DNA of 64,000 nucleotides from the IMG/VR virus record IMGVR_UViG_2778261667_000017; one strand, given 5' to 3'. Both the position numbers and the translations under genes were made by a program. The notes under the pieces are model-generated. The model searched no databases and was not told the origin of the DNA. It saw only the letters and a program-made list of their open reading frames with translations. Below, piece after piece: positions 339-41,066 of the stretch. Source of the DNA: a virus. Its lineage: Duplodnaviria; Heunggongvirae; Uroviricota; Caudoviricetes. Numbering within the stretch: the first letter of the stretch is position 1; every line of letters begins with the position of its first letter.

Positions 339-339
339 G

Positions 340-1335: not shown

Positions 1336-1352
1336 TTTTGTGGAGAAAGTTG

Positions 1353-2903: not shown

Positions 2904-2905
2904 TA

Positions 2906-4081: not shown

Positions 4082-4198
4082 TATATATCCCGAATTATAA
4101 GAATGAATTTTTATGTGGCTGAAAATTCTATCAAAACACTAACGCGTACGCAAAAAATATCGTAATCTGTTAAGTGTGCTCACTTCGCCACACAGCTT

Positions 4199-4228
4199 AA
4201 ACCCGCCATCGAGCGGGTTTTGTCGTTT
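4199..4228 (+). terminator. candidate intrinsic terminator (possible tR'-like) upstream of the holin
   Basis: Hairpin acccgc-catcga-gcgggt followed by a T-rich run. Confidence 0.4.
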
Positions 4229-4372
4229 CTGGGTCTGGGGATTCCTTGGTCCTAGCCTATCCCGCAGTTATCCATTGACTCGGCTTCTTTGACGTTTCCG
4301 CATCTGATTTGCGGTACATGATGTTTCCTCAATTTGCACCTGCTGTATCAGCGAGGTGAGAGATAACTACAA

Positions 4373-4699
4373 ATGCCTCATAACCCAAATACCTGGCTGG
4401 AGTTGGTCCAGAGCTGGTGGCGTGGAGACACACCGCTGGGCGCAGTGATTATGTCGATCGTTATGGCTGGCTTGCGCATTGCCTATTTTGGCGGTGGTGG
4501 TGGCTGGAAACGAAAAACGCTCGAGATTTTGCTCTGTGGTGCTCTGACGCTGACTTTTGCATCCGCTCTTGAGTATGTCGGATGGCCTAAATCTCTTTCT
4601 GTTGCCATTGGTGGCGGCGTTGGGCTGATCGGGGTCGATGCTATTCGTGGGGCTGCAATGAGAGTAATCGGTAATAAGTTTGGTGGCTCTAAGGAGTAA
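4373..4699 (+). CDS. holin (lambda S-like)
   Basis: 108 aa; hydrophobic helices and charged C-terminus; immediately precedes the endolysin. Confidence 0.75.
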   Translation: MPHNPNTWLELVQSWWRGDTPLGAVIMSIVMAGLRIAYFGGGGGWKRKTLEILLCGALTLTFASALEYVGWPKSLSVAIGGGVGLIGVDAIRGAAMRVIGNKFGGSKE

Positions 4700-7357: not shown

Positions 7358-7852
7358 ATGGCTGGAACGGCGGGGCGTTCCGGGCGTCGCCCCAAGCCAA
7401 CGGCGCGCAAGGCGCTGGCCGGAAACCCCGGCAAGCGAGCCCTGAATAAAGATGAACCTGTTTTTACGCCCATCAAAGGTGTTGAGCCACCGGAGTGGTT
7501 CGCTGAAGAAGATCTCCCTCTCGCTACGATCATGTGGCAACTGACAACTAAAGAACTCTGCGGTCAGGGCCTGCTGTGCGTGACTGACCTCGCGGTGCTT
7601 GAGCGGTGGTGCGTGGCCTACGAGTTCTGGCGACGTGCCGTGAAAAATATTGCCAGACAGGGCAACACCATCACCGGTGCAATGGGCGGTATGGTCAAAA
7701 ATCCGGAGCTGACCGCCAAAAAAGAACAGGAGTCCGAGATGAGCAGTACGGGGGCAATGCTCGGACTCGACCCCAGCAGCCGCCAGCGTCTGATTGGCCT
7801 GGCGGGGCAGAAGAAAGCCACTAACCCGTTTCTGAAAATCATCGAATCATGA
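7358..7852 (+). CDS. terminase small subunit (P27 family-like)
   Basis: AGGAG ribosome-binding site 8 nt before ATG 7358; overlaps the start of the large subunit. Confidence 0.75.
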
Positions 7853-9582
7853 GCCGGAAATCTTACCCCAACGTAAATGCTGCCAATCAGTATGCCCGTG
7901 ATGTCGTGCGCGGAAATATTGTGGCCTGCCAGTTTGTGATTCAGGCCTGCCAGCGCCATCTTGATGACCTGATGGCGGAAAAAAGTAAGTCGTTTCGTTA
8001 CCGCTTCGACAAGGACCTGGCTGAACGGGCCGCCAAATTTATTCAGCTGTTGCCACACACCAAGGGGGAGTGGGCATTCAAGAGGATGCCCATCACGCTG
8101 GAGCCGTGGCAGCTCTTTGTGATCTGCTGTGCGTTTGGCTGGGTCAATAAAGGTACCCGGCTGCGCCGCTTCCGGGAGGTGTATACCGAAATCCCCCGTA
8201 AGAACGGCAAATCGGCAATCTCTGCCGGTGTCGCCCTGTATTGTTTTGCCTGTGATAACGAGTTTGGCGCGGAAGTGTATTCCGGTGCCACGACAGAGAA
8301 ACAGGCGTGGGAAGTCTTTCGCCCGGCGCGACTGATGTGTAAACGCACACCCATGCTGACGGAAGCGTTCGGGATTGAGGTTAACGCCTCAAACATGAAC
8401 CGTCCGGAGGATGGCGCGCGGTTTGAACCGCTGATCGGTAACCCCGGTGATGGTTCATCACCCCACTGTGCGGTGGTGGATGAATATCACGAGCACGCCA
8501 CCGATGCGCTTTACACCACGATGCTTACCGGGATGGGGGCGCGACGTCAGCCACTGATGTGGGCCATTACTACTGCAGGGTACAACATTGAGGGGCCGTG
8601 CTACGACAAGCGACGGGAAGTTATCGAGATGCTCAACGGGTCGGTACCCAACGATGAACTGTTCGGGATCATCTATACCGTTGACGAAGGCGATGACTGG
8701 ACCGACCCGCAGGTGCTGGAAAAAGCCAACCCGAATATTGGCGTGTCGGTTTATCGCGAATTTTTGTTAAGTCAGCAGCAGCGTGCGAAAAATAACGCCC
8801 GTCTGGCAAACGTCTTTAAAACAAAACACCTCAATATCTGGGTGTCGGCGCGTTCGGCGTATTTCAACCTGGTGAGCTGGCAGAGCTGCGAGGATAAATC
8901 ACTGACCCTTGAGCAGTTCGAGGGGCAGCCGTGCATTCTGGCCTTTGACCTGGCGCGTAAGCTGGATATGAACAGTATGGCGCGACTTTATACCCGCGAG
9001 ATTGACGGTAAAACGCATTACTACAGTGTGGCTCCGCGCTTCTGGGTACCGTATGACACGGTGTACAGCGTCGAGAAAAATGAAGATCGCCGGACAGCCG
9101 AACGCTTTCAGAAATGGGTGGAAATGGGCGTTCTGACCGTTACCGCTGGTGCGGAGGTGGATTATCGCTACATCCTCGAGGAGGCCAAAGCGGCGAACAA
9201 AATCAGCCCGGTCAGCGAGTCACCCATCGACCCCTTCGGGGCGACCGGGCTCTCACATGACCTTGCTGATGAAGACCTGAACCCCATCACTATCATTCAG
9301 AACTACACCAACATGTCCGACCCGATGAAAGAGCTGGAAGCGGCAATTGAATCGGGGCGCTTTCATCATGATGGCAATCCCATCATGACCTGGTGTATCG
9401 GCAACGTGGTCGGCAAAACCATTCCGGGTAACGATGATGTGGTGAAGCCCGTCAAAGAGCAGGCGGAAAACAAAATCGATGGTGCAGTTGCGCTGATTAT
9501 GGCGGTTGGCAGAGCCATGCTGTACGAGAAAGAAGACACGTTGTCTGACCACATTGAGTCCTATGGGATCCGCTCGCTTTAA
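7849..9582 (+). CDS. terminase large subunit
   Basis: 577 aa; ATPase and nuclease-type layout; position between small subunit and portal. Confidence 0.9.
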
Positions 9583-14894: not shown

Positions 14895-15065
14895 ATGTTT
14901 GTCAAACCTGTTAAAGGGCGGTCAGTGCCTGACCCTGCCCGCGGTGACTTTTTGCCCGCCGAAGGGCGAAATGTTGACGAGAACAACTACTGGCTGCGCC
15001 GTGAAGCAGCGGGTGATATCCGGCGCGTGAATAAAAAGGTGAACACCGATGACGATAAGCTTTAA
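14895..15065 (+). CDS. small protein preceding the tail sheath (Mu-like module)
   Basis: 56 aa ORF MFVKPVKGRSV, not in the ORF track (below its size cut-off); overlaps the sheath start. Confidence 0.35.
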   Translation: MFVKPVKGRSVPDPARGDFLPAEGRNVDENNYWLRREAAGDIRRVNKKVNTDDDKL

Positions 15066-16545
15066 CACCATTCCGTCGAATACGCTGGTTCCGCTGTTTT
15101 ATGCGGAAATGGATAACCAGGCGGCGAATACTGCACAGGACAGCGGAGCATCGCTGCTGATTGGTCATGCCAATAACGGTGCAGAGATTGTTGCCAACAG
15201 TCTGGTGCTGATGCCGTCGGCAGACTATGCACGCCAGATTTGTGGTGCGGGAAGTCAGCTGGCGCGTATGGTCGAGGCTTATCGCCAGACCGACCTGTTT
15301 GGCGAGCTGTATGTGATTGCCGTTCCGGAAGCCACAGGCGCGGCGGCAACGGTTACGCTGACGGTGACCGGGGAAGCAACCGAAAGCGGCACGGTGAATG
15401 TCTATGTGGGACGTACCCGCGTGCAGGCTCCGGTGACCAACGGCGATAACGTCACGACGATTGCCAGCAGTATCCAGGATGCCATCAATGCCGTTCCGAC
15501 TCTGCCGTTTACAGCTTCATCTTCAGCTGGTGTTGTCACGCTGACCGCGCGTCATAAGGGGCTTTGCGGGAATGAAATTCCTGTCAGCCTCAATTACTAC
15601 GGCTTCGGTGGGGGCGAAGTGCTGCCAGCGGGCGTACAGATTGCCGTGGCGACGGGGACCGCCGGAACGGGCGCTCCGGTTCTCACCGGCGCGGTGGCTG
15701 CAATGGCGGATGAGCCGTTTGATTATATCGGCCTGCCGTTCAACGACACGGCCTCCGTTAACACGCTGGTGACTGAGATGAACGATACCAGCGGTCGCTG
15801 GAGCTATGCGCGTCAGCTGTATGGTCATGTGTATACGGCAAAGACCGGTACGCTGTCAGAACTGGTGACCGCAGGTGACCAGTTTAACCAGCAGCACATT
15901 ACCCTGGCGGGGTACGAAAAAGAGACCCAGACGCCTGCCGACGAACTGGCGGCAAGCCGTACCGCCCGCGCAGCGGTGTTTATTCGCAACGATCCGGCAC
16001 GTCCCACGCAGACCGGTGAGCTGGTGGGTATGCTGCCTGCGCCGAAGGGGAAACGGTTCACGATGACCGAACAACAGACCCTGCTGTCTCATGGCGTGGC
16101 AACGGCGTATGTCGAAAGCGGGGTACTGCGCATTCAGCGTGATGTCACCACGTACAGGAAAAACGCTTACGGGGTTGCGGATAACAGCTACCTAGACAGT
16201 GAGACTCTGCATACCAGCGCGTATGTACTGCGCAAACTGAAATCCGTCATTACCAGTAAGTACGGGCGTCACAAGCTTGCCAGTGACGGTACCCGCTTTG
16301 GTCCCGGTCAGGCAATTGTCACCCCGGCGGTGATCAAAGGGGAACTGCTGGCAACCTACCGTCAGCTTGAGCGTGCGGGGATCGTGGAAAACTACGAACT
16401 GTTTAAGCAGTACCTGGTTGTGGAGCGTGATGCCAGCGATCCGAACCGCCTGAACACGCTGTTCCCGCCTGACTATGTTAACCAGTTGCGTGTCTTTGCC
16501 GTGGTTAACCAGTTCCGTCTTCAGTATTCAGAGGAGTCTGCATAA
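15049..16545 (+). CDS. contractile tail sheath protein (Mu gpL-like)
   Basis: 498 aa; followed by tube, chaperone and tape measure. Confidence 0.8.
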   Translation: MTISFNTIPSNTLVPLFYAEMDNQAANTAQDSGASLLIGHANNGAEIVANSLVLMPSADYARQICGAGSQLARMVEAYRQTDLFGELYVIAVPEATGAAATVTLTVTGEATESGTVNVYVGRTRVQAPVTNGDNVTTIASSIQDAINAVPTLPFTASSSAGVVTLTARHKGLCGNEIPVSLNYYGFGGGEVLPAGVQIAVATGTAGTGAPVLTGAVAAMADEPFDYIGLPFNDTASVNTLVTEMNDTSGRWSYARQLYGHVYTAKTGTLSELVTAGDQFNQQHITLAGYEKETQTPADELAASRTARAAVFIRNDPARPTQTGELVGMLPAPKGKRFTMTEQQTLLSHGVATAYVESGVLRIQRDVTTYRKNAYGVADNSYLDSETLHTSAYVLRKLKSVITSKYGRHKLASDGTRFGPGQAIVTPAVIKGELLATYRQLERAGIVENYELFKQYLVVERDASDPNRLNTLFPPDYVNQLRVFAVVNQFRLQYSEESA

Positions 16546-28477: not shown

Positions 28478-28710
28478 AATTGTTTATTAAAGTCACATTT
28501 AAGACGTAATACCCTACAGGGTAAAAATTTTCTCTGATCTTAACTTCTGCAAATGTTAACTGCTATTTTTATGCTAAAAATGGTTATCAAAACTCAAAAA
28601 CACATGTTTATAATCAATGAGTTATAGAAATGCTAAGGGCTAATGAGTTATATGCAAATTAGTAAAATTATGTTGCTATCTCAAATAGTTACGATTTAGT
28701 CATCTAACTA

Positions 28711-28875
28711 ATGCTGCGCCATATGGGTTGGACTGAAGCGGCTGACCTGATTGTTAAAGGTATGGAAGGCGCAATCAATGCCAAGACCGTAACCTATGAC
28801 TTCGAACGTCTGATGGAAGGCGCTAAACTGCTGAAATGTTCAGAGTTTGGTGACGCGATCATCAAGAATATGTAA
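28711..28875 (+). pseudogene. icd: icd 3' fragment (isocitrate dehydrogenase C-terminal about 54 codons, no upstream coding body)
   Basis: Translates [54 protein letters not shown], matching the Icd C-terminus from memory with about two substitutions. Confidence 0.8.
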
Positions 28876-28898
28876 TCACTACATGTGTTAAATATTGA

Positions 28899-28927
28899 AA
28901 CGGGCGTATAACACGCCCGTTGTTTTA
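28899..28927 (+). terminator. intrinsic terminator after the icd fragment
   Basis: aacgggcgt-ataac-acgcccgtt hairpin followed by gttttat. Confidence 0.5.
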
Positions 28928-28941
28928 TGATGATTTAAAAT

Positions 28942-28978
28942 CTTCCCCAAAACTTTCCCCAAAACCCTTCCCCAAAAC
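28942..28978. repeat. three tandem copies of a 12 bp unit (cttccccaaaac-like), candidate integrase arm-type binding sites
   Basis: ttccccaaaac at 28943, 28955 and 28968, just upstream of the integrase 3' end. Confidence 0.4.
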
Positions 28979-28988
28979 TGGCTATTTT

Positions 28989-30131
28989 CTATGCTGTTTT
29001 GATATCTACGATAATCCAGTCTTTACCACGATCATCATTGTATCGGTCGGTCATTTTTCTGGATTTATGACCTAACAACTTTTGCGTATCCAGACCCTGT
29101 TCCCGATATAACCGTTCTGACAGAGATCGCTGCTCATGAAATGTGGGCGCAGTTCCTTGCTCCCATTTTATGCCACATTTTTCCCTGGCCTTTTTAAAAG
29201 CCGTTGTAAGAGTATTTGCAGACACCTGGTCTCCTCTGTTTGCTTGAGAGGTAGTGTGACGGTAATGGACCAGATATTTACTAACAACAGCATCCCTGCA
29301 CTGAGATATAACTTCACGAAGGGTAATATTCAGAGCATCGCATTTCAGGTTAAGCGGAATAGCAAGTTTTGAACCGGTTTTTTCCTGAGTAATGTGCAAC
29401 ATGTCGTCCCAGATATCAGAGAATTTCAAATTGCAGATATCGCCTAAACGTTGTCCAGTGACAAGAGCAAGTAGCATCCCGCATTTTAAATAGGGCTGCC
29501 GTCTGCTTACGCTGTCAAATATTGCCTGCCATTCGGGCAGTGATAATCTTTGGCGGTTTACTCGATTTCGCGGTTGTTTTGTTGCCTGCGCTGGGTTAAA
29601 TCCTGGCGGAACATGTCCGGCGTGTTGTGCTTCTTTGAAGACGTCGATCAACACCATTCTCACGACTTGCGCCATCCTGTTATGACCTTCAGCCTTTACA
29701 GCATCAATTATTTCGGCAATATCAAGTGCGGTAATATCCTTGAGGTGTTGCATTCCACAATGCTCACGGAAAAGACGAATGGGTTTGCCTTTTTGCCGAT
29801 AGGAGTTGGGTCTTAGTTCATTATGTTGCAGCCTGTCCTCCTGGATAGAAATATATTTATCAAGCCATTCTGTCACCGTAATGTCTGAGCGCCTGCCTTT
29901 CATTCTTTCCAGACGCTCATTGACGCTTAATATTTGTCGGGTACGTTGTTCAGCAATAATGGTATTTGCTTCAGTAGCAACTTGTTTTGCTTCATTCTCA
30001 TCAGTTCCTAAGCTATGAAAACGACCGGATAGTGGATGTTTGTATTGCCAATATACCTTTCCGGTTCGCTTATCTAATTTGCAATATAAATTGGGTATAG
30101 AGATTTTGTGAGATCGGGGGCTAGCAGCCAT
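28989..30131 (-). CDS. int: tyrosine integrase
   Basis: 380 aa; C-terminal catalytic region with ...HEQRSLSERLYREQG...LLGHKSRKMTDRY. Confidence 0.9.
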   Translation of the reverse strand: MAASPRSHKISIPNLYCKLDKRTGKVYWQYKHPLSGRFHSLGTDENEAKQVATEANTIIAEQRTRQILSVNERLERMKGRRSDITVTEWLDKYISIQEDRLQHNELRPNSYRQKGKPIRLFREHCGMQHLKDITALDIAEIIDAVKAEGHNRMAQVVRMVLIDVFKEAQHAGHVPPGFNPAQATKQPRNRVNRQRLSLPEWQAIFDSVSRRQPYLKCGMLLALVTGQRLGDICNLKFSDIWDDMLHITQEKTGSKLAIPLNLKCDALNITLREVISQCRDAVVSKYLVHYRHTTSQANRGDQVSANTLTTAFKKAREKCGIKWEQGTAPTFHEQRSLSERLYREQGLDTQKLLGHKSRKMTDRYNDDRGKDWIIVDIKTA

Positions 30132-30357
30132 CAGCGATTATCCGTTGGAGTTTTGGGTTTGCGTTTATTGGGAGTTGCGGTTCTGCAAGCGTTCCTACAA
30201 AACGGGAATTTCGGTCAATCATCCAGTAGCGACCAACTTTTATAGCGGGTGGGGCCATCATTTTCCCTTGCGCGTATTTTTTCAGAACTCGCTCACTTGG
30301 TGCTAAGTCCCCAAATTCTTCTTTAGCCCAGTCCTGTAAAGTGATTAGTCGAGACAT
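30121..30357 (-). CDS. xis: excisionase
   Basis: 78 aa, overlaps the int start. Confidence 0.7.
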   Translation of the reverse strand: MSRLITLQDWAKEEFGDLAPSERVLKKYAQGKMMAPPAIKVGRYWMIDRNSRFVGTLAEPQLPINANPKLQRIIADGC

Positions 30358-30496
30358 TTGTCCTCCTCTTAGCTGCTGAGGGAGTTTGTGACCGATATAT
30401 CTGACATGATATTAAGCTCATGGCAGGTACATCTCTTGACTGGTCATAGAGATAAATTTAATGCTGAGAAATGCAGTATTGAATTTATCAATTTTT

Positions 30497-30736
30497 CTAT
30501 TTCCTGCGTATGGCACGTAACTTCTTAATGTGTTCTGCTGTATCGATCTCTTCGGCTATCCGCTCTGATTCCACTTTACTCACAGGTTCAAAGTCATGAT
30601 TAAAGCGGAACATGCTGGCGATACATGTTCTGCCTTTTCGGATGTAGTGAACTTTGTTGTGGGTAGAACGCAGGATTTTGCAGGGAGTGCCGTGGTGGTC
30701 GACGTACCAGGTGTTAGGAAAAATGATTCTGAACAT
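30497..30736 (-). CDS. hypothetical protein
   Basis: 79 aa ORF. Confidence 0.45.
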   Translation of the reverse strand: MFRIIFPNTWYVDHHGTPCKILRSTHNKVHYIRKGRTCIASMFRFNHDFEPVSKVESERIAEEIDTAEHIKKLRAIRRK

Positions 30737-30783
30737 TTTTACACCTCAGTTGGACGATGTTGAAATTTGCTGCTTTGAGGCCA

Positions 30784-31002
30784 TTACAATCCCCATTGTT
30801 TGTTCTTAAGTTCGATCTCCTCCTGGCAACTTGCACAAGTCCGACAACCCTGAACGGCCAGGCGTCTTCGCTCATCTATCGGATCGCCACACTCACAACA
30901 ATGAGTGGCAGATATAGCCTGGTGGTTCAGGCGGCGCATTTTTATTGCTGTGTTGCGCTGTAATTCTTCAATTTCTGATGCTGAATCAATGATGTCTGCC
31001 AT
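30784..31002 (-). CDS. TraR/DksA-family C4 zinc-finger protein
   Basis: 72 aa with CCECG...CRTCASC. Confidence 0.6.
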   Translation of the reverse strand: MADIIDSASEIEELQRNTAIKMRRLNHQAISATHCCECGDPIDERRRLAVQGCRTCASCQEEIELKNKQWGL

Positions 31003-31100
31003 CTTTCATTAATCCCTGAATTGTTGGTTAATACGCTTGAGGGTAAATGCGAATAATAAAAAAGGAGCCTGTAGCTCCCTGATGATTTTGCTTTTCATGT

Positions 31101-31382
31101 TCACCGTTCCTTAAAGACGCCGTTCAACATGCCGATCGCCAGGCTTAAATGAGTCGGTGTGAATCCCATCAGCGTTACCGTTTCGCGGTGCTTCTTTAGT
31201 ACGCTACGGCAAATGTCATCGACGTTTTTATCCGGAAACTGCTGTCTGGCTTTTTTGATTTCAGAATTAGCCTGACGGGCAATGCTGCGAAGGGCGTTTT
31301 CTTGCTGAGGTGTCACTGAACAAGCCCCATGTCGGCAAGCATAAGCACACAGAATATGAAGCCCGCTGCCAGAAAAATGCAT
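31101..31382 (-). CDS. hypothetical protein
   Basis: 93 aa ORF. Confidence 0.4.
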   Translation of the reverse strand: MHFSGSGLHILCAYACRHGACSVTPQQENALRSIARQANSEIKKARQQFPDKNVDDICRSVLKKHRETVTLMGFTPTHLSLAIGMLNGVFKER

Positions 31383-31392
31383 TCAGTGGTTG

Positions 31393-31584
31393 TCATACCT
31401 GGTCTCTCTCATCTGCTTCTGCTTTCGCCACCATCATTTCCAGCTTTTGTGAAAGGGATGTGGCTAACGTATGAAATTCTTCGTCTGTTTCTGCTGGTAT
31501 TGGCACAAACCTGACTCCAATTTGAGCAAGGCTATGTGCCATCTCAATACTCGTTCTTAACTCAACAGGAGATGCTTTGTGCAT
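31393..31584 (-). CDS. hypothetical protein (lambda orf63-like position)
   Basis: 63 aa. Confidence 0.4.
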   Translation of the reverse strand: MHKASPVELRTSIEMAHSLAQIGVRFVPIPAETDEEFHTLATSLSQKLEMMVAKAEADERDQV

Positions 31585-31745
31585 ACCGCCTCCCGTTTAT
31601 TATTTATCTTCTCAGCCAGCCGCTGTGCTTTCAGTGGATTTCTGATAACAGAAAGGCCGGGAAATACCCAGCCTCGCTTTGTAACGGAGTAGACGAAAGT
31701 GATCGCGCCTACCCGGATATTATCGTGAGGATGCGTCATCGCCAT
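31557..31745 (-). CDS. hypothetical protein (lambda orf60a-like position)
   Basis: 62 aa, overlaps the exo start. Confidence 0.4.
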
Positions 31746-32416
31746 TGCTCCCCAAATACAAAACTAATTTCAGCCAGTGCCTCGTCCATTTTTTCGATGA
31801 ACTCCGGCACCATCTCGTCAAAACTCGCCATGTACTTTTCATTCCGCTCAATCACGACATAATGCAGGCCTTCACGCTTCATGCGCGGGTCATAGTTGGC
31901 AAAGTACCAGGCATCTTTTCGCGTCACCCACATGCTGTACTGCACCTGGGCCATGTAAGCCGATTTTATTGCCTCGAAACCACCGAGCCGGAATTTCATG
32001 AAATCCCGGGAGGTAAACGGGCATTTCAGTTCAAGGCCGTTCCCGTCACTGCATAAACCATCGGGAGAGCAGGCGGTGCGCATACTTTCGTCGCGATAGA
32101 TGATCGGGGATTCAGTAATATTCACGCCGGAAGTGAATTCAAACAGGGTTCTGGCGTCGTTCTCGTACTGTTTTCCCCAGGCCAGCGCCTTAGCATTAAC
32201 TTCCGGAGCCACACCGGTGCAAACCTCAGCCAGCAGGGTGTGGAAGTAGGACATTTTCATGTCAGGCCACTTCTTTCCTGAGCGGGGTTTTGCTATCACG
32301 TTGTGAACTTCTGAAGCGGTGATGACGCCGAGCCGTAATTTGTGCCATGCATCATCCCCCTGTTCGACAGCTCTCACGTCGATCCCGGTACGCTGCAGGA
32401 TAATGTCCGGTGTCAT
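31736..32416 (-). CDS. exo: lambda exonuclease (Red-alpha)
   Basis: 226 aa [40 protein letters not shown], near-identical to lambda Exo from memory. Confidence 0.95.
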
Positions 32417-33198
32417 GCTGCCACCTTCTGCTCAGTGGCTTTCTGTTTCAGGAATCCAAGAGCTTTCACTGCTTCGGCCTGTGTCAGTTCTGACGATGCG
32501 CGAATGTCGCGGCGAAATATCTGGGAACAGAGCGGCAATAAGTCGTCATCCCATGTTTTGTCCAGGGCAATCAGCAGAGTGTTAATCTCCTGCATGGTTT
32601 CATCGTTAACCGGAGTGATGTCGCGTTCCGGCTGACGTTCTGCAGTGTATGCGGTATTTTCGACAATGCGCTCGGCTTCATCCTTGTCATAGATACCCGC
32701 AAATCCGAAGGCCAGACGGGCACACTGAATCATGGCTTTATGCCGTAACATCCGTTTGGGATGCGACTGCCACGGCCCCGTAATTTCTCTGCCTTCGCGG
32801 GTTTTGAATGGTTCGCGACGGCATTCATCCATCCACTCGGTAACGCAGATCGGATGATTACGGTCCTTGCGGTAAATCCGGCATGTACAGGATTCATTGT
32901 CCTGCTCAAAGTCCATGCCATCAAACTGCTGGTTTTCATTGATGATGCGGGACCAGCCATCAACGCCCACCACCGGAACGATGCCATTCTGCTTATCAGG
33001 AAAGGCGTAAATTTCTTTCGTCCACGGATTAAGGCCGTACTGGTTGGCAACGATCAGTAATGCGATGAACTGCGCATCGCTGGCATCACCTTTAAATGCC
33101 GTCTGGCGAAGAGTGGTGATCAGTTCCTGTGGGTCGACAGAATCCATGCCGACACGTTCAGCCAGCTTCCCTGCCAGCGTTGCGAGTGCTGTACTCAT
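32413..33198 (-). CDS. bet: Bet single-strand annealing protein (Red-beta)
   Basis: 261 aa [21 protein letters not shown], lambda Bet from memory. Confidence 0.95.
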
Positions 33199-33203
33199 TC
33201 GTT

Positions 33204-33500
33204 TTATACCTCTGAATCAATATCAACCTGGTGGTGAGCAATGGTTTCAACCATGTACCGGATGTGTTCTGCCATGCGCTCCTGAAACTCAACATCGTCA
33301 TCAAACGCACGGGTAATGGCTTTTTTGCTGGCCCCGTGGCGTTGCAAATGATCGATGCATAGCGATTCAAACAGGTGCTGGGGCAGGCCTTTTTCCATGT
33401 CGTCTGCCAGTTCTGCCTCTTTCTCTTCATGGGCGATCTGCTGGTAGTGACGCGCCCAGCTCTGAGCCTCAAGACGATCCTGAATGTAATAAGCGTTCAT
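33204..33500 (-). CDS. gam: Gam (RecBCD inhibitor), short GamS-length ORF
   Basis: 98 aa [21 protein letters not shown]; the upstream ATG at 33621 that would give the long form is out of frame here. Confidence 0.85.
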
Positions 33501-33575
33501 GGCTGAACTCCTGAAAATGGCTGTGAAAATATCGCCCGCGAAATGCCAGGCTGATTAGGAAAACAGGAAAGGGGG

Positions 33576-33719
33576 TTAGTGAATGCTTTTGCTTGATCTC
33601 AGTTTCAGTATTAATATCCATTTTTTATAAGCGTCGACGGCCTCACGAAACATCTTTTCATCGCCAATAAAAGTGGCGATAGTGAATTTAGTCTGGATAG
33701 CCATAAGTGTTTGATCCAT
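33576..33719 (-). CDS. kil: Kil (host cell-division inhibitor)
   Basis: 47 aa [47 protein letters not shown]; the ORF-track 89 aa extension is rejected. Confidence 0.8.
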
Positions 33720-33852
33720 TTTTTGGGACTCCTGGCTGATTAAGTATGTCGATAAGGCGTTTCCATCCGTCACGTAATTTACGGGTAATTCGTTCAAGTA
33801 AAGATTCGGAAGGGCAGCCAGCAACAGGCCACCCTGCAATGGCATATTGCAT
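33688..33852 (-). CDS. cIII: CIII (FtsH inhibitor)
   Basis: 54 aa [54 protein letters not shown] read from the reverse strand; below ORF-track size cut-off. Confidence 0.8.
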   Translation of the reverse strand: MQYAIAGWPVAGCPSESLLERITRKLRDGWKRLIDILNQPGVPKNGSNTYGYPD

Positions 33853-33924
33853 GGTGTGCTCCTTATTTATACATAACGAAAAACGCCTCGAGTGAAGCGT
33901 TATTGGTATGCGGTAACGCCGCGT

Positions 33925-34293
33925 TCAGGCGGCTTTGATAGTCATATCATCTGAATCAAATATTCCTGATGTATCGATATCGGTAATTCTTATTCCTTCG
34001 CTACCATCCATTGGAGGCCATCCTTCCTGACCATTTCCATCATTCCAGTCGAACTCACACACAACACCATATGCATTTAAGTCTTTCGAAATTGCTATAA
34101 GCAGAGCATGTTGCGCCAGCATGATTAATACAGCATTTAATAAAGAACCGTGTTTATTTAGTCGGTATTCAGAGTCTGACCAGAAATTATTAATCTGGTG
34201 AAGTTTTTCCTCTGTCATTACGTCATGGTCGATTTCAATTTCTATTGATGCTTTCCAGTCGTAATCAATGATGTATTTTTTGATGTTTGACAT
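33925..34293 (-). CDS. ea10: Ea10-like protein
   Basis: 122 aa MSNIKKYIIDYDWKASIEIEIDHDVMTEEKLHQ, lambda Ea10 from memory. Confidence 0.85.
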   Translation of the reverse strand: MSNIKKYIIDYDWKASIEIEIDHDVMTEEKLHQINNFWSDSEYRLNKHGSLLNAVLIMLAQHALLIAISKDLNAYGVVCEFDWNDGNGQEGWPPMDGSEGIRITDIDTSGIFDSDDMTIKAA

Positions 34294-34492
34294 CTGTTCA
34301 TATCCTCACAGATAAAAAATCGCCCTCACATTAGAGGGCAAAGAAGATTTCCAATAATCAGAACAAGTCGGCTCCTGTTTAGTTACGAGCGACATTGCTC
34401 CGTGTATTCACTCGTTGGAATGAATACACAGTGCTGTGTTTATTCTGTTGTTTATGCCAAAAATAAAGGCCGACTATGCGGCCTGAAATTAC

Positions 34493-34726
34493 TTAACCAA
34501 TGATGCTGCATATTCGATAAGGTAAAGCTTTGGGGCCAGCCAAATTTTTAACCAAGTCATATTGGTTACTACACCAATAATAAAAATCCCCCACAGAGTC
34601 AAAACTCCAACCAATGGCTGATAAGAAGGTTAATATCTCCTTTGCTATCCCAAACCATTGTCGGCCTGTATTTGGGATTTCCCCTCTCCCATGAGTATCC
34701 TTCATCACCGATTTTACCTGTCTCAA
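34493..34726 (-). CDS. hypothetical ORF overlapping 34599..34937 in another frame (possible frameshifted continuation)
   Basis: 77 aa, hydrophobic. Confidence 0.25.
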   Translation of the reverse strand: MRQVKSVMKDTHGRGEIPNTGRQWFGIAKEILTFLSAIGWSFDSVGDFYYWCSNQYDLVKNLAGPKALPYRICSIIG

Positions 34727-34937
34727 CTCTTTGGCACTGCTTCTTCATAAACCAGAAAACCAGTGGGATTGTTAGAATGGCTATTAATGTTTTAATCAGA
34801 CTGTCAACCATATTCCATAGCAGCAACTGATGAACAACATCAGGAATCTGCGCTTGGCTGAATGAAACAGCCGCGTCTATTCCATTGCTGGCTTTTTGCA
34901 GTAGTTCTACGAGAATCTTGTTTGCTTGTTCTTCCAT
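34599..34937 (-). CDS. hypothetical small membrane protein (inserted between ea10 and ral)
   Basis: 112 aa with hydrophobic segment LIKTLIAILTIPLVFWFM; AT-rich; no lambda counterpart that I recall. Confidence 0.4.
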   Translation of the reverse strand: MEEQANKILVELLQKASNGIDAAVSFSQAQIPDVVHQLLLWNMVDSLIKTLIAILTIPLVFWFMKKQCQRVETGKIGDEGYSWERGNPKYRPTMVWDSKGDINLLISHWLEF

Positions 34938-34996
34938 ATATCCCCTTGATTGTAATAAGCATGAAATTATTTACGGCCAAAAAATAAAGGCCACCA

Positions 34997-35197
34997 TCAG
35001 GCAGCCTTGTTATTCTGTTTACCAAGTTCTCTGGCAATCATTGCCGTCGTTCGTATTGCCCATTTATCGACATATTTCCCATCTTCCATTACAGGAAACA
35101 TTTCTTCAGGCTTAACCATGCATTCCGATTGCAGCTTGCATCCATTGCATCGTTTGAATTGTCCACACCATTGATTTGTATCAATAGTCGTAGTCAT
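34997..35197 (-). CDS. ral: Ral (restriction alleviation)
   Basis: 66 aa MTTTIDTNQWCGQFKRCNGCKLQSECMVKPEEMF, lambda Ral from memory. Confidence 0.9.
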   Translation of the reverse strand: MTTTIDTNQWCGQFKRCNGCKLQSECMVKPEEMFPVMEDGKYVDKWAIRTTAMIARELGKQNNKAA

Positions 35198-35410
35198 ACG
35201 GATAGTCCTGGTATTGTTCCATCACATCCTGAGGATGCTCTTCGAACTCTTCAAATTCTTCTTCCATATATCACCTTAAATAGTGGATTGCGGTAGTAAA
35301 GATTGTGCCTGTCTTTTAACCACATCAGGCTCGGTGGTTCTCATGTACCACTACAGCGAGAAATCGGATAAACTCTATTCACCCCTACAGAGAGCAAAAG
35401 AGAAACGCCG

Positions 35411-35992
35411 ATGAACAACTCATGGTGGCAGGAACTAATGCATTTTTTCCTGCAAGGAATGACACTTAAACAGTTGATTCATATGCTAATCATCCTGATC
35501 ATATTGATTATTGTTATGCCGGTAAGCGTAAAAGAATGGATAAACCTGCATAATCCAGAAATCCTTCCTCATTACTGGATGTATTACATCCTGTTGTTTT
35601 GCGTTAGCTATGTGCTTAACGGCGTTGTTAATTCCGCTTATCACGCTGTGACTGAAAGAATTGAGGTATCCGCTGCTCAGAAGCGCAAATCTAAAGAAGA
35701 AAAATATGTGCAAGATTTGTTTGATTCATTAACTCTTGGAGAAAGAGCGTATTTGGCATTTGCTGTAGCCGCTAATAACCAGCTACAAACGGAAAAGGGA
35801 GCTCATGAATCAATTTCATTGCTCAAAAAAGGACTCCTCGCTCGAAGGCCTCCTGCTGTTGGATATCCTGATACCGACCGTTTCGTTATCCCTGAAAGCT
35901 ATAGACATGAGTGCTACATTAGGTTTGCCGGGAAGGCAGACAGCCTTATGGATGAACTTATCGCTCAGGATAAGCATGGCAAAAACAAGTAA
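35411..35992 (+). CDS. sieB: SieB-like superinfection exclusion protein (membrane)
   Basis: 193 aa starting MNNSWWQELM with an N-terminal hydrophobic region; plus-strand gene between ral and N as in lambda. Confidence 0.65.
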   Translation: MNNSWWQELMHFFLQGMTLKQLIHMLIILIILIIVMPVSVKEWINLHNPEILPHYWMYYILLFCVSYVLNGVVNSAYHAVTERIEVSAAQKRKSKEEKYVQDLFDSLTLGERAYLAFAVAANNQLQTEKGAHESISLLKKGLLARRPPAVGYPDTDRFVIPESYRHECYIRFAGKADSLMDELIAQDKHGKNK

Positions 35993-36008
35993 TTAGCAAA
36001 TGAATTTA

Positions 36009-36281
36009 TCATCTCGCCGTCAGTTGTTTTGATTTCCGGTAGCCTGCCGCGTAAATGGCTACGTTTGGCAGGCAAATACTTCCACTGCATTCATCTGCCT
36101 TCTTGCAGCGAAGGCTTCCGAGTGATGCTGCTTTGTCTGCTCTGACGCAACCAGAGAGCTTTAGCGCAATTTTTCGCGCCAGTCGCTGTTCTTGCATTGC
36201 CTGCTCACGTTGAGCCTGTCTGCGTGCTCTGCGGCGATTTCTGGCGTTATCGTCAGCCAGATATGTAATGACTACTGCCAT
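36009..36281 (-). CDS. N-like early antiterminator (P22 gp24 type)
   Basis: 90 aa; arginine-rich motif NARNRRRARRQAQREQ; C-terminus ...AIYAAGYRKSKQLTAR resembles P22 gp24. Confidence 0.7.
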   Translation of the reverse strand: MAVVITYLADDNARNRRRARRQAQREQAMQEQRLARKIALKLSGCVRADKAASLGSLRCKKADECSGSICLPNVAIYAAGYRKSKQLTAR

Positions 36282-36481
36282 GTTGACCTCCGATGATTGA
36301 CTTTGGCGGTGACGCGCCGGGTGCTTATCTTCCGGTTGCCGTCGTGCAGCTGCACTTCACGTCACCCCACCCCAAAGCCAACTACTCTTTGGTTCCCGCA
36401 TTTCGGCGGGACAATCCCATCAATGTTAAAGAGCCTGCCAATCTGTTCCGTTTGGCTACCAGCGTCCTGCTGATGACTTAA

Positions 36482-36499
36482 ATTTAAGATTTCTTTAAT
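36482..36499. promoter_or_regulatory. operator-like site in the oL/pL region
   Basis: atttaagatttctttaat, P22-type operator-like palindrome between N and the repressor. Confidence 0.4.
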
Positions 36500-36598
36500 T
36501 GCTGGTCAAGGGTGTTTTTGAAGAAAACTTAAATTTTATTGCGAAGTTTAAGTTTTGCTTTGATTTTTAAAGGAAAGAAAAAAAGGGGCGAATGCCCC

Positions 36599-37249
36599 TT
36601 ATGGAAGGTTTGCTATTTTTGCATCGACAACTACACCGATGATTTTGCAGTTCCCGTTGATCTCAATCATCGGATATTGTGGGTTAAGTGGTTTTAGAAA
36701 CCTTCTGCCAGCATCAATAACTAACTTCTTGAAAGTTGCCTCGTTTTCTCCTTCGAGCTTTGCCACTACCAGCTTCCCATTACGAGGTTCTACTTCAGGA
36801 TCGACTAGTATTATCATCCCTTCCGGGATGCTAAGACCGGCTGGAGCCGTCATCGAATCACCCTTTACGTCCAGCCAAAACGAATCTTCTGAACAATCTA
36901 CGGTTGTATCGTACCAGTTATCTATTGCACGCTTATGATATGGCTCTACAGCTTCCATCCAACATCCTGCGCTTACCCAACTAATTAGAGGATACGAACC
37001 TCTTGGATCATGCCTGCTGTGATAGGCAATGTTTGAAAGACTATCTTCTCCTTTCAACAAGTAATCAGGGGAGCACTGTAAAGCCTTGGCTAAAGCCAAT
37101 AGGTTTTCGCCATTGGGCTCAGTTTCAGAACGCTCCCATTGGGAAATAGCAACATTAGACACGCCAACCATCTTGCCAAGGGCAGCCTGCCTAATCTTAA
37201 GTTCTTTTCTGCGAGCGCGAATACGCTCACCCATCAGTTGTGTATTCAT
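36599..37249 (-). CDS. CI-type repressor (P22 C2-like; helix-turn-helix plus S24 peptidase domain)
   Basis: 216 aa MNTQLMGERIRARRKELKIRQAALGKMVGVSNVAISQWERSE; C-terminal autocleavage domain. Confidence 0.9.
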   Translation of the reverse strand: MNTQLMGERIRARRKELKIRQAALGKMVGVSNVAISQWERSETEPNGENLLALAKALQCSPDYLLKGEDSLSNIAYHSRHDPRGSYPLISWVSAGCWMEAVEPYHKRAIDNWYDTTVDCSEDSFWLDVKGDSMTAPAGLSIPEGMIILVDPEVEPRNGKLVVAKLEGENEATFKKLVIDAGRRFLKPLNPQYPMIEINGNCKIIGVVVDAKIANLP

Positions 37250-37320
37250 AGTTAAGACATCTTAAATAAACTTGACTTAAGATTCCTTTGATAGATAATT
37301 TAAGTATTCTTTAATTTCGG
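37250..37320. promoter_or_regulatory. oR/pR/pRM region with operator-like palindromes
   Basis: agttaagacatcttaaat (37250..37267) and atttaagtattctttaat (37298..37315) in the divergent repressor-cro intergenic region. Confidence 0.5.
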
Positions 37321-37329
37321 AGCGAGTCT

Positions 37330-37515
37330 ATGTACAAGAAAGATGTTATCGACCACTTCGGAACCCAGCGTGCGGTAGCTAAAGCGTTAGGCATTAGCGA
37401 TGCAGCAGTCTCTCAGTGGAAGGAAGTCATCCCAGAGAAAGACGCCTATCGACTGGAAGTCGTTACAGCTGGCGCCCTGAAGTATCAAGAAAGTGCTTAT
37501 CGCAAAGCGGCATAA
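37330..37515 (+). CDS. cro: Cro
   Basis: 61 aa MYKKDVIDHFGTQRAVAKALGISDAAVSQWKE, P22 Cro-like. Confidence 0.85.
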   Translation: MYKKDVIDHFGTQRAVAKALGISDAAVSQWKEVIPEKDAYRLEVVTAGALKYQESAYRKAA

Positions 37516-37623
37516 GCAAATTGCTCTTTAACAGTCATGGTCCTTATTCCCGCCGAAATGCGGGAATACAACGCGCATCAGTTGGTGCGTATAACTTCTT
37601 ATTTGTTAAGGAAATACTTACAT

Positions 37624-37902
37624 ATGCAACTTACAAGTACTCGCAAGAAAGCGAATGCAATCACAAGCAACATCCTGAATCGAATTGCTGTACGTGGTCA
37701 GCGAAAGGTTGCTGATGCATTAGGGATTAATGAATCGCAAATTTCGCGATGGAAAGACAGCTTTATCCCAAAGATGGCCATGCTTCTGGCTGTGCTGGAG
37801 TGGGGTGTTGAAGACGAGGAATTAGCAAAGCTAGCAAAGAAAGTAGCCATGGTGCTGACAAAAGAAAAGCCTCAAGACTGCTGCAACAGTTTTGAGGCCT
37901 GA
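37624..37902 (+). CDS. CII-like transcriptional activator
   Basis: ESQISRWKDSFIPKMAMLLAVLEWGV resembles lambda CII; start at the Met after an AAGGA ribosome-binding site. Confidence 0.75.
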   Translation: MQLTSTRKKANAITSNILNRIAVRGQRKVADALGINESQISRWKDSFIPKMAMLLAVLEWGVEDEELAKLAKKVAMVLTKEKPQDCCNSFEA

Positions 37903-37936
37903 TGTAGAAAGACTGGATCAATCCACAGGAGTCATT

Positions 37937-38836
37937 ATGACAAATACAGCAAAAATACTCAACTTCGGCAGAGGTAACTTTGCCGGACAGGAGCGTAATG
38001 TGGCAGATCTCGATGATGGTTACGCCAGACTATCAAATATGCTGCTTGAGGCTTATTCAGGCGCAGATCTGACCAAGCGACAGTTTAAAGTGCTGCTTGC
38101 CATTCTGCGTAAAACCTATGGGTGGAATAAACCAATGGACAGAATCACCGATTCTCAACTTAGCGAGATTACAAAGTTACCTGTCAAACGGTGCAATGAA
38201 GCCAAGTTAGAACTCGTCAGAATGAATATTATCAAGCAGCAAGGCGGCATGTTTGGACCAAATAAAAACATCTCAGAATGGTGTATCCCTCAAAACGAGG
38301 GAAAATCCCCTAAAACGAGGGATAAAACATCCCTCAAATTGGGGGATTGCTATCCCTCAAAACAGGGGGACACAAAAGACACTATTACAAAAGAAAAAAG
38401 AAAAGATTATTCGTCCGAGAATTCTGGCGAATCCTCTGACCAGCCAGAAAACGATCTTTCTGTGGTTAAACCGGATGCTGCAATTCAGAGCGGCAGCAAG
38501 TGGGGGACAGCAGAAGACCTGACCGCCGCAGAGTGGATGTTTGACATGGTGAAGACTATCGCACCATCAGCCAGAAAACCGAATTTTGCTGGGTGGGCTA
38601 ACGATATCCGCCTGATGCGTGAACGTGACGGACGTAACCATCGCGACATGTGTGTACTGTTCCGCTGGGCATGCCAGGACAACTTCTGGTCCGGTAACGT
38701 GCTTAGCCCGGCCAAACTCCGCGACAAGTGGACCCAGCTCGAAATCAACCGTAACAAGCAACAGGCAGTCGTGACAGCCAGCAAACCAAAACTCGACCTG
38801 ACAAACACAGACTGGATTTACGGGGTGGATCTATGA
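37937..38836 (+). CDS. O: replication initiator O
   Basis: MTNTAKILNFGRGNFAGQERNVADLDDGYARL, lambda O from memory; contains the origin iterons. Confidence 0.9.
   Translation: MTNTAKILNFGRGNFAGQERNVADLDDGYARLSNMLLEAYSGADLTKRQFKVLLAILRKTYGWNKPMDRITDSQLSEITKLPVKRCNEAKLELVRMNIIKQQGGMFGPNKNISEWCIPQNEGKSPKTRDKTSLKLGDCYPSKQGDTKDTITKEKRKDYSSENSGESSDQPENDLSVVKPDAAIQSGSKWGTAEDLTAAEWMFDMVKTIAPSARKPNFAGWANDIRLMRERDGRNHRDMCVLFRWACQDNFWSGNVLSPAKLRDKWTQLEINRNKQQAVVTASKPKLDLTNTDWIYGVDL
38285..38371. repeat. ori-lambda-type iterons (four copies of about 18-20 bp) within O
   Basis: atccctcaaaacgaggga, atcccctaaaacgaggga, atccctcaaattggggga, atccctcaaaacaggggga, followed by an A-rich tract to about 38410. Confidence 0.8.
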
Positions 38837-39534
38837 AAAACATCGCCGCACAGATGGTTAACTTTGACCGTGAGCAGATGCGTCGGATCGCCAACAACAT
38901 GCCGGAACAGTACGACGAAAAGCCGCAGGTACAGCAGGTAGCGCAGATCATCAACGGTGTGTTCAGCCAGTTACTGGCAACTTTCCCGGCGAGTCTGGCT
39001 AACCGTGACCAGAACGAACTGAACGAAATCCGCCGCCAGTGGGTTCTGGCTTTCCGGGAAAACGGGATCACCACAATGGAACAGGTTAACGCAGGAATGC
39101 GCGTAGCCCGTCGGCAGAATCGACCATTTCTGCCATCACCCGGGCAGTTTGTTGCATGGTGCCGGGAAGAAGCATCCGTTATCGCCGGACTGCCAAACGT
39201 CAGCGAGCTGGTTGATATGGTTTACGAGTATTGCCGGAAGCGAGGCCTGTATCCGGATGCGGAGTCTTATCCGTGGAAATCAAACGCGCACTACTGGCTG
39301 GTTACCAACCTGTATCAGAACATGCGGGCCAATGCGCTTACTGATGCGGAATTACGCCGTAAGGCCGCAGATGAGCTTGTCCATATGACTGCGAGAATTA
39401 ACCGTGGTGAGGCGATCCCTGAACCAGTAAAACAACTTCCTGTCATGGGCGGTAGACCTCTAAATCGTGCACAGGCTCTGGCGAAGATCGCAGAAATCAA
39501 AGCTAAGTTCGGACTGAAAGGAGCAAGTGTATGA
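38833..39534 (+). CDS. P: replication protein P (DnaB loader)
   Basis: 233 aa MKNIAAQMVNFDREQMRRIANNMPEQYDEKPQ, lambda P from memory. Confidence 0.9.
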   Translation: MKNIAAQMVNFDREQMRRIANNMPEQYDEKPQVQQVAQIINGVFSQLLATFPASLANRDQNELNEIRRQWVLAFRENGITTMEQVNAGMRVARRQNRPFLPSPGQFVAWCREEASVIAGLPNVSELVDMVYEYCRKRGLYPDAESYPWKSNAHYWLVTNLYQNMRANALTDAELRRKAADELVHMTARINRGEAIPEPVKQLPVMGGRPLNRAQALAKIAEIKAKFGLKGASV

Positions 39535-39821
39535 CGGGCAAAGAGGCAATTATTCATTACCTGGGGACGCATAATAGCTTCTGTGCGCCGGACGTTGCCG
39601 CGCTAACAGGCGCAACAGTAACCAGCATAAATCAGGCCGCGGCTAAAATGGCACGGGCAGGTCTTCTGGTTATCGAAGGTAAGGTCTGGCGAACGGTGTA
39701 TTACCGGTTTGCTACCAGGGAAGAACGGGAAGGAAAGATGAGCACGAACCTGGTTTTTAAGGAGTGTCGCCAGAGTGCCGCGATGAAACGGGTATTGGCG
39801 GTATATGGAGTTAAAAGATGA
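39531..39821 (+). CDS. ren: Ren
   Basis: 96 aa MTGKEAIIHYLGTHNSFCAPDVAALTGATV, lambda Ren from memory. Confidence 0.8.
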   Translation: MTGKEAIIHYLGTHNSFCAPDVAALTGATVTSINQAAAKMARAGLLVIEGKVWRTVYYRFATREEREGKMSTNLVFKECRQSAAMKRVLAVYGVKR

Positions 39822-39894
39822 CCATCTACATTACTGAGCTAATAACAGGCCTGCTGGTAATCGCAGGCCTTTTTATTTGGGGGAGAGGGAAGTC

Positions 39895-40335
39895 ATGAAA
39901 AAACTAACCTTTGAAATTCGATCTCCAGCACATCAGCAAAACGCTATTCACGCAGTACAGCAAATCCTTCCAGACCCAACCAAACCAATCGTAGTAACCA
40001 TTCAGGAACGCAACCGCAGCTTAGACCAAAACAGGAAGCTATGGGCCTGCTTAGGTGACGTCTCTCGTCAGGTTGAATGGCATGGTCGCTGGCTGGATGC
40101 AGAAAGCTGGAAGTGTGTGTTTACCGCAGCATTAAAGCAGCAGGATGTTGTTCCTAACCTTGCCGGGAATGGCTTTGTGGTAATAGGCCAGTCAACCAGC
40201 AGGATGCGTGTAGGCGAATTTGCGGAGCTATTAGAGCTTATACAGGCATTCGGTACAGAGCGTGGCGTTAAGTGGTCAGACGAAGCGCGACTGGCTCTCG
40301 AATGGAAAGCGCGATGGGGAGACAGGGCGGCATGA
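39895..40335 (+). CDS. ninB: NinB recombination protein
   Basis: [28 protein letters not shown], lambda NinB from memory. Confidence 0.85.
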
Positions 40336-40508
40336 GACGACAGCGACGAAGTATCACCGACATCATCTGCGAAAACTGCAAATACCTTCCAACGAAGCGC
40401 TCCAGAAATAAACGCAAGCCAATCCCAAAAGAATCTGACGTAAAAACCTTCAATTACACAGCTCACCTGTGGGATATCCGGTGGCTAAGATATTGTGCGA
40501 GGAAATGA
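40332..40508 (+). CDS. NinD-like small protein
   Basis: [24 protein letters not shown]; small basic protein in the nin region. Confidence 0.5.
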
Positions 40509-40510
40509 CA

Positions 40511-40852
40511 ATGGATTATTCACAGTTAAGTGATTTTGAAATTAACAGAATGGTAGGAGACATAATTTTTAAAGGCCTTTGGGCAAGTAAACCGGAAACA
40601 TCAGGGAATAACACCAACAAATGGTATTACGGAAATGCTGATACAACTTTTGAGCCATTAAATCATTTGCCTGACTACTGCAATGATCCGAGCGCTTCAT
40701 GGCCGATTATTGAGAAATACAGGATTTCTATCTTAGACCAGTTAACTGAATGGTGTGTGGATGCAAAAGGCGTAAGCCCAATATTTGATACCAGACCTCT
40801 CCGCGCCGCCATGATTGTCTTTCTCCTGATGCAGGAGGCCAATAATGCTTAG
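40511..40852 (+). CDS. hypothetical nin-region protein
   Basis: 113 aa [18 protein letters not shown]. Confidence 0.45.
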
Positions 40853-41066
40853 CCCATCTCAATCCCTTCAATCCCTTCAATCCCTTCAATCCCTTCAATA
40901 CCTGAAAGGAAGCATAGAGCGGGCTTCAATGTGCACAGAGTGGATTCTATCTAGGTTTAGCGCATACAGAAGATTGCCGGTAAAGGGCATGCCAAGCAAG
41001 TCGATGCTGCATATGCAAAAGAATGCGCGCTGGAAGGTATGGCGAGAACACAGGTTATCTGGCTGA
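40845..41066 (+). CDS. hypothetical small protein containing an in-frame SLQ x4 repeat
   Basis: 73 aa; 9 bp tandem repeat at 40861..40896. Confidence 0.35.
40861..40896. repeat. 9 bp tandem repeat (aatcccttc x4)
   Basis: Four perfect tandem copies read directly from the sequence. Confidence 0.9.

Follow-up and report, generated by a model that had tools for sequence, protein, structure and literature searches.

The early-left (pL) operon of phage lambda (NC_001416) carries ea10 and ral as close neighbours: ea10 starts at 33904, ral ends at 34087, and 182 bp lie between them. This spacer encodes LPR1/PreS, an Hfq-dependent sRNA of ∼88 nt that is processed to ∼68 nt, has tL2a as its 3′ end and, as a lytic-cycle transcript, raises the translation of DnaN (bioRxiv 10.1101/2024.10.31.621285). 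In phages Sf6 and HF4s and in E. coli prophages, a further gene is found at this locus, and the order is the same in each: ral or N, the gene, its terminator and then tL2A. In Sf6 this is gene 34, which is annotated already in the deposited record, and a cassette at this position is not unusual.

Three further systems bear on how such a gene may be read. Morons, of which HK97 gene 15 and lambda bor are examples from lambdoid phages, are single accessory genes with a terminator of their own. T4 Imm and other small inner-membrane superinfection-exclusion proteins are small, early and non-essential, and have two predicted transmembrane (TM) helices. Accessory genes are commonly found in phages between the lysis genes and terminase.

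Here we describe the ea10–ral interval in a 64,000-nucleotide stretch of viral DNA (the window). The interval is, with high probability, the lambda spacer with PreS and tL2a plus a 521-bp mosaic cassette that consists of one gene and its own terminator, the gene being pseudogenised in this copy. A cassette between ea10 and ral is common among lambda-like phages and has been catalogued before, and the finding is real but ordinary.

The interval is a lambda spacer plus 521 bp of additional DNA

In the ORF map of the window, the interval is bounded downstream by ea10 (DUF2528, 122 aa; 33925–34293, minus strand) and upstream in the pL operon by ral (66 aa; 34997–35197, minus strand); Pfam Ral was assigned to the identical ral gene in the contig L006. 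The gap between the two genes is 703 bp compared with 182 bp in lambda, which agrees with the initial annotation, where less than 200 bp in lambda and ∼700 bp here had been proposed. Alignment to lambda, the check suggested there, set the boundaries of the additional DNA at 34472–34992. These 521 bp are absent from lambda, and the other 178 bp (34294–34471) match the normal lambda ea10–ral spacer nearly base for base. Thus an insertion relative to lambda does exist, but it amounts to 521 bp and not to the ∼0.7 kb first claimed. The 521-bp unit is oriented on the minus strand and contains a ribosome-binding site, a gene of the family phrog_3054 and a second copy of a terminator 3′ half. Its position in the pL operon beside sieB and ral, and its coding for a small hydrophobic protein, were both correctly recognised at the outset. 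It had also been called AT-rich, and its GC content is indeed 0.403, but it is no more AT-rich than ea10 (0.374), ral (0.413) or sieB (0.409).

Partial matches to the 703-bp interval were found in 328 phage records and in 2250 of 5426 complete E. coli genomes; most of these are to the spacer that is common to these genomes and to conserved gene ends. Full-length matches were found in 4 phage records and 111 of the 5426 genomes, and none of the complete E. coli genomes in this collection contains the identical 703 bp.

The flanking repeats are halves of two intrinsic terminators

Similar motifs had been noted on either side of the insertion, and these proved to be an exact 13-nt direct repeat with copies at 34980–34992 and 34459–34471 and a spacing of 521 bp. 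Over the whole 64 kb of the window, the motif CCAAAAATAAAGGCC was found at just two places, 34457 and, with one mismatch, 34978, compared with 0.02 occurrences expected from shuffled sequences. Lambda has a single copy of GGCCTTTATTTTTGGCATAAA, directly after ral, whereas the window has two with 521 bp between them. A terminator scan showed that both copies are the 3′ stem and T-run of minus-strand intrinsic terminators. The left copy belongs to the ral terminator (34977–35008; hairpin 35008–34987 followed by a T-run), which overlaps the ral stop codon, and the right copy to the terminator 3′ of the inserted gene (34457–34484; hairpin 34484–34467 followed by a T-run). Further minus-strand terminators in the scan were tL2a (34341–34320) and one 3′ of ea10. 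The flanking motifs are therefore the 3′ halves of two intrinsic terminators and not the scars of a mobile-element insertion.

The direct repeat brackets a unit that lambda lacks, as it would if the 521 bp were a small mobile element and the 13 nt its target-site duplication. We consider this extremely improbable. The ORF map of the cassette region contains no transposase, integrase or homing-endonuclease ORF; the only inverted repeat found in 34200–35100 (34392–34439) lies inside the spacer shared with lambda, leaving no terminal ones around the unit; the repeat is a functional terminator 3′ half, of which one copy is native to lambda; and relatives of the gene occur elsewhere, for example after Rz, outside this repeat context.

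The reading that we prefer, a mosaic cassette joined at a terminator, would place the junction with the backbone inside a 13–17-nt sequence, GGCCTTTATTTTT(T)GGC, that makes up a terminator 3′ stem and T-run. Because the joint is itself this part of a terminator, its sequence is present on both sides of the cassette. The simplest account of the presence and absence of the cassette would be recombination within the short repeated half-terminator. The cassette could have been gained by exchange with another lambdoid phage, or a deletion between the repeats could have removed it from the lineage of lambda. Either way, the duplicated half-terminator shows how single-gene cassettes can come or go at terminators.

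The shared spacer contains a PreS homologue

The 178-bp spacer hardly varies between the window, lambda, HF4s and Sf6, although the gene downstream of it differs among these phages. The alignment with lambda places a PreS/LPR1 homologue of ∼88 nt on the minus strand at 34312–34401 (5′ end approximate), with the tL2a hairpin (34341–34320) at its 3′ end. The copy is identical to lambda PreS save for two bases in the terminator loop, and in Sf6 and HF4s, too, differences are confined to this loop; the region folds with −31.3 kcal/mol (z = −4.5). The interval thus holds a homologue of an sRNA whose Hfq-dependent role is known from lambda. Both here and in lambda its place is between ea10 and ral, with tL2a as its end; in lambda, however, PreS is directly downstream of ral, whereas in the window the 521-bp cassette and an extra terminator intervene. 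Rfam gave no match in the gap at the gathering threshold (two matches at E = 0.37 and 0.9 are noise), and PreS is evidently not in Rfam.

The Sf6 record annotates a “boundary sequence” (bsq4) here and marks tL2A at the homologous hairpin. That a mosaic boundary sequence coincides with PreS may provide a functional reason for its conservation. The inverted repeat at 34392–34439, with 22-nt arms of 77% complementarity, lies just upstream of the PreS 5′ end and overlaps it. Lambda has this repeat too, and it may represent another element of the tL2 cluster or a processing structure.

The cassette gene is interrupted by a single-base deletion

The ORF map of the cassette shows three overlapping minus-strand ORFs, of 112 aa (34599–34937), 77 aa (34493–34726) and 41 aa (34489–34614, with a TTG start). 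The first two had been proposed to be one frameshifted gene. Alignment with intact relatives confirmed the frameshift but not the partner. A homologue of Sf6 gene 34 occupies 34489–34937 on the minus strand and would encode 149 aa when intact, but codon ATG-107 has lost its T (between 34618 and 34619), a single-base deletion that changes CTTATCATGCC into CTTATCAGCC on the minus strand. The closest prophages (e.g. NZ_AP022287; 99.9% DNA identity) have 704 bp here and an annotated 149-aa hypothetical protein, WP_000392424.1; the lost T is the sole difference between the window and these 99.9%-identical relatives. The C-terminal end of the intact protein (...LLIMPLVGVLTLWGIFIIGVVTNMTWLKIWLAPKLYLIEYAASLVK) is in the frame of the 41-aa ORF. 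The partner of the 112-aa ORF is thus the 41-aa ORF, and the 77-aa ORF is a shadow frame. HF4s gp37, annotated as “TM helix-containing protein,” is the same 149-aa form, as is WP_000392424.1 in E. coli prophages; the window DNA is 96–99.9% identical to these forms, but its copy is cut at residue 106.

The 112-aa product retains, in frame, the conserved N terminus, the first TM helix (TM1) and the loop of the family protein, but it is truncated after residue 106, and the second TM helix (TM2) and the conserved C-terminal tail, encoded out of frame at 34489–34617, are missing from it. Because TM2 and the invariant tail are missing, we infer that the truncated product has lost its function, and the window copy is most likely a pseudogene, without function, that occupies a dispensable slot for accessory genes. 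Inspection of the sequence for two other ways to the C-terminal part led to their rejection: the sequence ahead of the TGA has no slippery heptamer by which programmed frameshifting could return to the −1 frame, and no Shine-Dalgarno sequence for a translational restart precedes the TTG of the 41-aa ORF.

The frameshift allele is genuine and circulates

The exact 112-aa product is present in the public protein collection, where 16 contigs encode it, drawn from isolate assemblies at NCBI (three), from several Logan assemblies of SRA runs and from ENA metagenomes. There are two sequence variants of the allele, one identical to the window and the other 99.7% identical, and the prophages that carry it have either Red-type (gam-bet-exo) or Erf-type recombination modules downstream. 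Moreover, 12.3 kb of the window (28599–40937) is 100% identical to contig PTSF01000006.1 of GCA_002965845.1.

One missing base separates the window from the closest complete genomes, and the identical 703 bp are in no complete E. coli genome of the collection, both of which would be expected if the frameshift were a sequencing or assembly error in a prophage that truly encodes the intact 149-aa protein. That the 112-aa product comes from 16 contigs of unrelated samples and pipelines, in two variants and in prophages with different recombination modules, makes such an error highly improbable, as does the site of the deletion, which is outside any homopolymer (ATCATGCC becomes ATCAGCC). The frameshift is a genuine circulating pseudogene allele and not a read error, because independent contigs, two variants, differing modules and a non-homopolymer site all attest to it.

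Other public alleles have been truncated or frameshifted independently (P0033, P0040, P0059, P0083, P0095 and P0117); P0033 shifts at a GGGGG run into the frame of the 77-aa ORF of the window. The gene thus appears to decay recurrently in prophages, and it is dispensable: lambda is without it, and these independently disrupted alleles are on record.

The persistence of the frameshift allele in several prophage backbones could also mean that the truncated protein keeps some activity. The 112-aa single-TM protein, perhaps together with a separately translated C-terminal fragment, would then be a functional variant under selection. Consistent with selection, the allele has two sequence variants, is carried by prophage backbones of at least two kinds (Red-type and Erf-type) and retains the conserved N-terminal domain and TM1. 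We nevertheless regard this as unlikely: the truncation removes TM2 together with WLKIWLAPKLYLIEYAASLVK, which is the motif most conserved in the family, the TTG of the 41-aa ORF has no Shine-Dalgarno sequence, and the other independent gene disruptions are what neutral decay would give. We therefore continue to treat the window copy as a pseudogene.

The intact protein belongs to the phrog_3054 family

A homology search and TM prediction on the merged reading frame, as the initial annotation had advised, yielded a family match and two TM helices. The reconstructed 149-aa protein matched phrog_3054 (function unknown) with E = 2.8e-64 over profile positions 1–137 of 137; the protein as encoded in the window covers residues 1–106 only. 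All 55 of 55 diverse family members matched phrog_3054. The family is large: the 90% clusters contain 516 matches, and with a profile search at E ≤ 1e-3 the 50% clusters yielded 2541 representatives. Pfam, NCBIfam and PADLOC gave no match for the reconstructed protein and no consistent match for the 55 diverse relatives, so that phrog_3054 was the only family matched, and no Pfam holin family matched the query or these relatives. A PDB profile search returned TatC at E = 0.15, which is noise, and otherwise no PDB sequence match; comparison of the fold of the predicted structure gave no informative structural neighbour. We found no literature under the family accessions, the PHROG identifier or “Sf6 gp34,” and neither the Sf6 evolution paper nor the phage L genome paper discusses Sf6 gene 34.

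In alignments, the intact 149-aa protein runs from a conserved N terminus through TM1, a hypervariable loop and TM2 to a conserved C-terminal tail. The N-terminal segment (∼42 aa, with the pattern GID.AV.FSQAQIPDV..QLL.W, then TM1) is conserved and acidic, and the tail is nearly invariant (WLKIWLAPKLYLIEYAASLVK; pattern W(L/I)KIW.APK.Y.(I/L)EYAA), with P136 and Y143 invariant in the 55 diverse members. The length of the loop between the TM helices ranges across members from 10 to 74 residues by a TM-window measure. An AF2 model built on a diverse alignment (pLDDT 87.4) has helices at residues 2–68, 106–125 and 128–148, and the intact protein combines a strongly conserved acidic N-terminal helix with an amphipathic C-terminal tail. 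In 213 members, K/R residues average 3.0 in the first ten loop residues versus 0.31 in the 15 residues ahead of TM1. These charge counts favour a predicted topology with the N terminus out, the loop in and the C terminus out in 177 of the 213 members, with an ambiguity introduced by the 2–3 lysines that the C-terminal tail also carries.

Three loop types occur at the ea10–ral locus: the window type, Sf6 gp34 and SPN9CC_0015. Sf6 gp34 (AAQ12224.1; 140 aa) shares its N-terminal 39 and C-terminal 20 residues with the family protein of the window, whereas its central part, from TM1 through the loop to TM2, is unrelated to the window type. SPN9CC_0015 (121 aa), the third type, has a loop of 9 residues.

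Relatives are found in early operons, lysis cassettes and virulent phages

Scanning one genome per species gave 34 loci with relatives, in Enterobacterales, Pseudomonas, Achromobacter, Pusillimonas and Candidimonas, with a few in other MAGs. Two positions recur. One is the early-left operon, with the N peptide upstream and RecT or Kil downstream. The other, found at 5 of the 10 loci tested (L021, L033, L035, L040 and L045), is directly 3′ of an Rz-like spanin gene, where the start of the relative overlaps the Rz stop codon or lies within ∼10 nt of it, with holin and endolysin genes upstream and terminase downstream. These post-Rz genes, at ∼3400–4450 of each locus, are the last of the lysis cassette in prophages of Pantoea, Buttiauxella, Proteus, Yersinia and Providencia. 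E. coli phage PhiR46_1 has, between Rz and Nu1, a copy with 76% identity (150–3450 of locus L054).

A tblastn search found the family in 181 phage records, including 63 from Vibrio phages and several from Pseudomonas phages, all annotated as hypothetical. The 181 records include virulent phages, namely N4-like phages (Shigella phage B2 gp83; 3001–3447 of locus L051) and ∼147-kb Justusliebigvirus myoviruses; B2 gp83 and phage PHB05 gp213 (2983–3420 of locus L052) are small early-region genes, and the virulent-phage relatives adjoin either an RNA polymerase gene and a dUTPase gene or genes for an ATPase and an endonuclease. Overall, phrog_3054 ranges over phages of Enterobacterales, Vibrio, Pseudomonas and Betaproteobacteria, both temperate and virulent.

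A crude consensus scan of 33800–35500, which weak or non-sigma-70 sites would escape, found no sigma-70-like promoter on the minus strand. Because terminators flank the gene and no promoter was found, the anatomy suggests that the gene would be expressed only under N-antiterminated transcription from pL, during early lytic growth.

We also weighed whether the cassette is a classical moron that is switched on in the repressed prophage and serves lysogenic conversion or exclusion, like its neighbour sieB. As with HK97 gene 15 and lambda bor, it comprises one accessory gene with its own terminator (hairpin 34484–34467 and T-run), placed, where it occurs, between two genes that are neighbours in lambda, and it adjoins sieB and ral. 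It differs from those morons in that no promoter was detected on its strand, its composition (GC 0.403) equals that of its neighbours and its relatives extend to strictly virulent phages and late lysis cassettes, where expression from a prophage would be meaningless; nor is there a PADLOC match. A classical moron is accordingly quite unlikely. Because relatives occur in virulent phages and late lysis cassettes, the distribution suggests instead a role in lytic growth, that is, a dispensable lytic-cycle membrane function and not lysogenic conversion.

Candidate functions of the family

As a tentative assignment, the family may possibly act at the inner membrane in a lytic-cycle function that is not essential: it would either exclude superinfecting phages by blocking the entry of their DNA or modulate lysis. 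For exclusion or anti-restriction, the position beside sieB and ral is the one link that we found; comparison with catalogued defence and exclusion proteins (SieB, PADLOC) gave 0 families in PADLOC, 0 in Pfam and 0 in NCBIfam. The likeness to T4 Imm is a functional analogy only, as no sequence or fold similarity to phrog_3054 was found.

A narrower alternative, that the family regulates lysis as an antiholin-like or spanin-associated protein and does not act in exclusion, strikes us as doubtful. It would explain why the gene abuts or overlaps the Rz-like stop codon at the five post-Rz loci, whose cassettes already contain an endolysin and Pfam holins, and why the PhiR46_1 copy sits between Rz and Nu1. 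However, the lambdoid, N4-like and large-myovirus copies are found among early genes, far from lysis genes, no holin or antiholin family matched, and the gap between lysis genes and terminase attracts accessory genes in general.

Keeping to the broader assignment, we could also envisage phrog_3054 as a widespread class of inner-membrane effectors whose conserved ends engage an envelope target and whose variable loop sets specificity, a proposal that we likewise hold only tentatively. If it were true, the class would be, for example, a new family of superinfection-exclusion or lysis-control proteins, and the window would show a naturally inactivated allele of it. For the window itself, little weight attaches to the locus, a routine lambdoid mosaic junction where the decayed accessory gene and a known sRNA are found. 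What interest is left belongs to a large uncharacterised family with conserved ends around a variable centre, of which an intact allele would be inexpensive to put through an assay for exclusion or lysis timing.

Other features of the window

The only Rfam match at the gathering threshold in the window is the lambda cIII thermoregulator (RF01804; 33807–33865, minus strand; 88.5 bits). The integrase gene of the lambdoid prophage is at 28989–30131 (minus strand). Directly beside this prophage, at 1–28600, the window contains a second, myovirus-type prophage with genes for TerL (7849–9582), tail sheath (15049–16545), portal, major capsid, tape measure and baseplate J. Beyond the integrase gene, the identical contig L006 has a weak fragment of the isocitrate dehydrogenase family (Iso_dh), which would agree with tandem prophages at the icd site or close to it.
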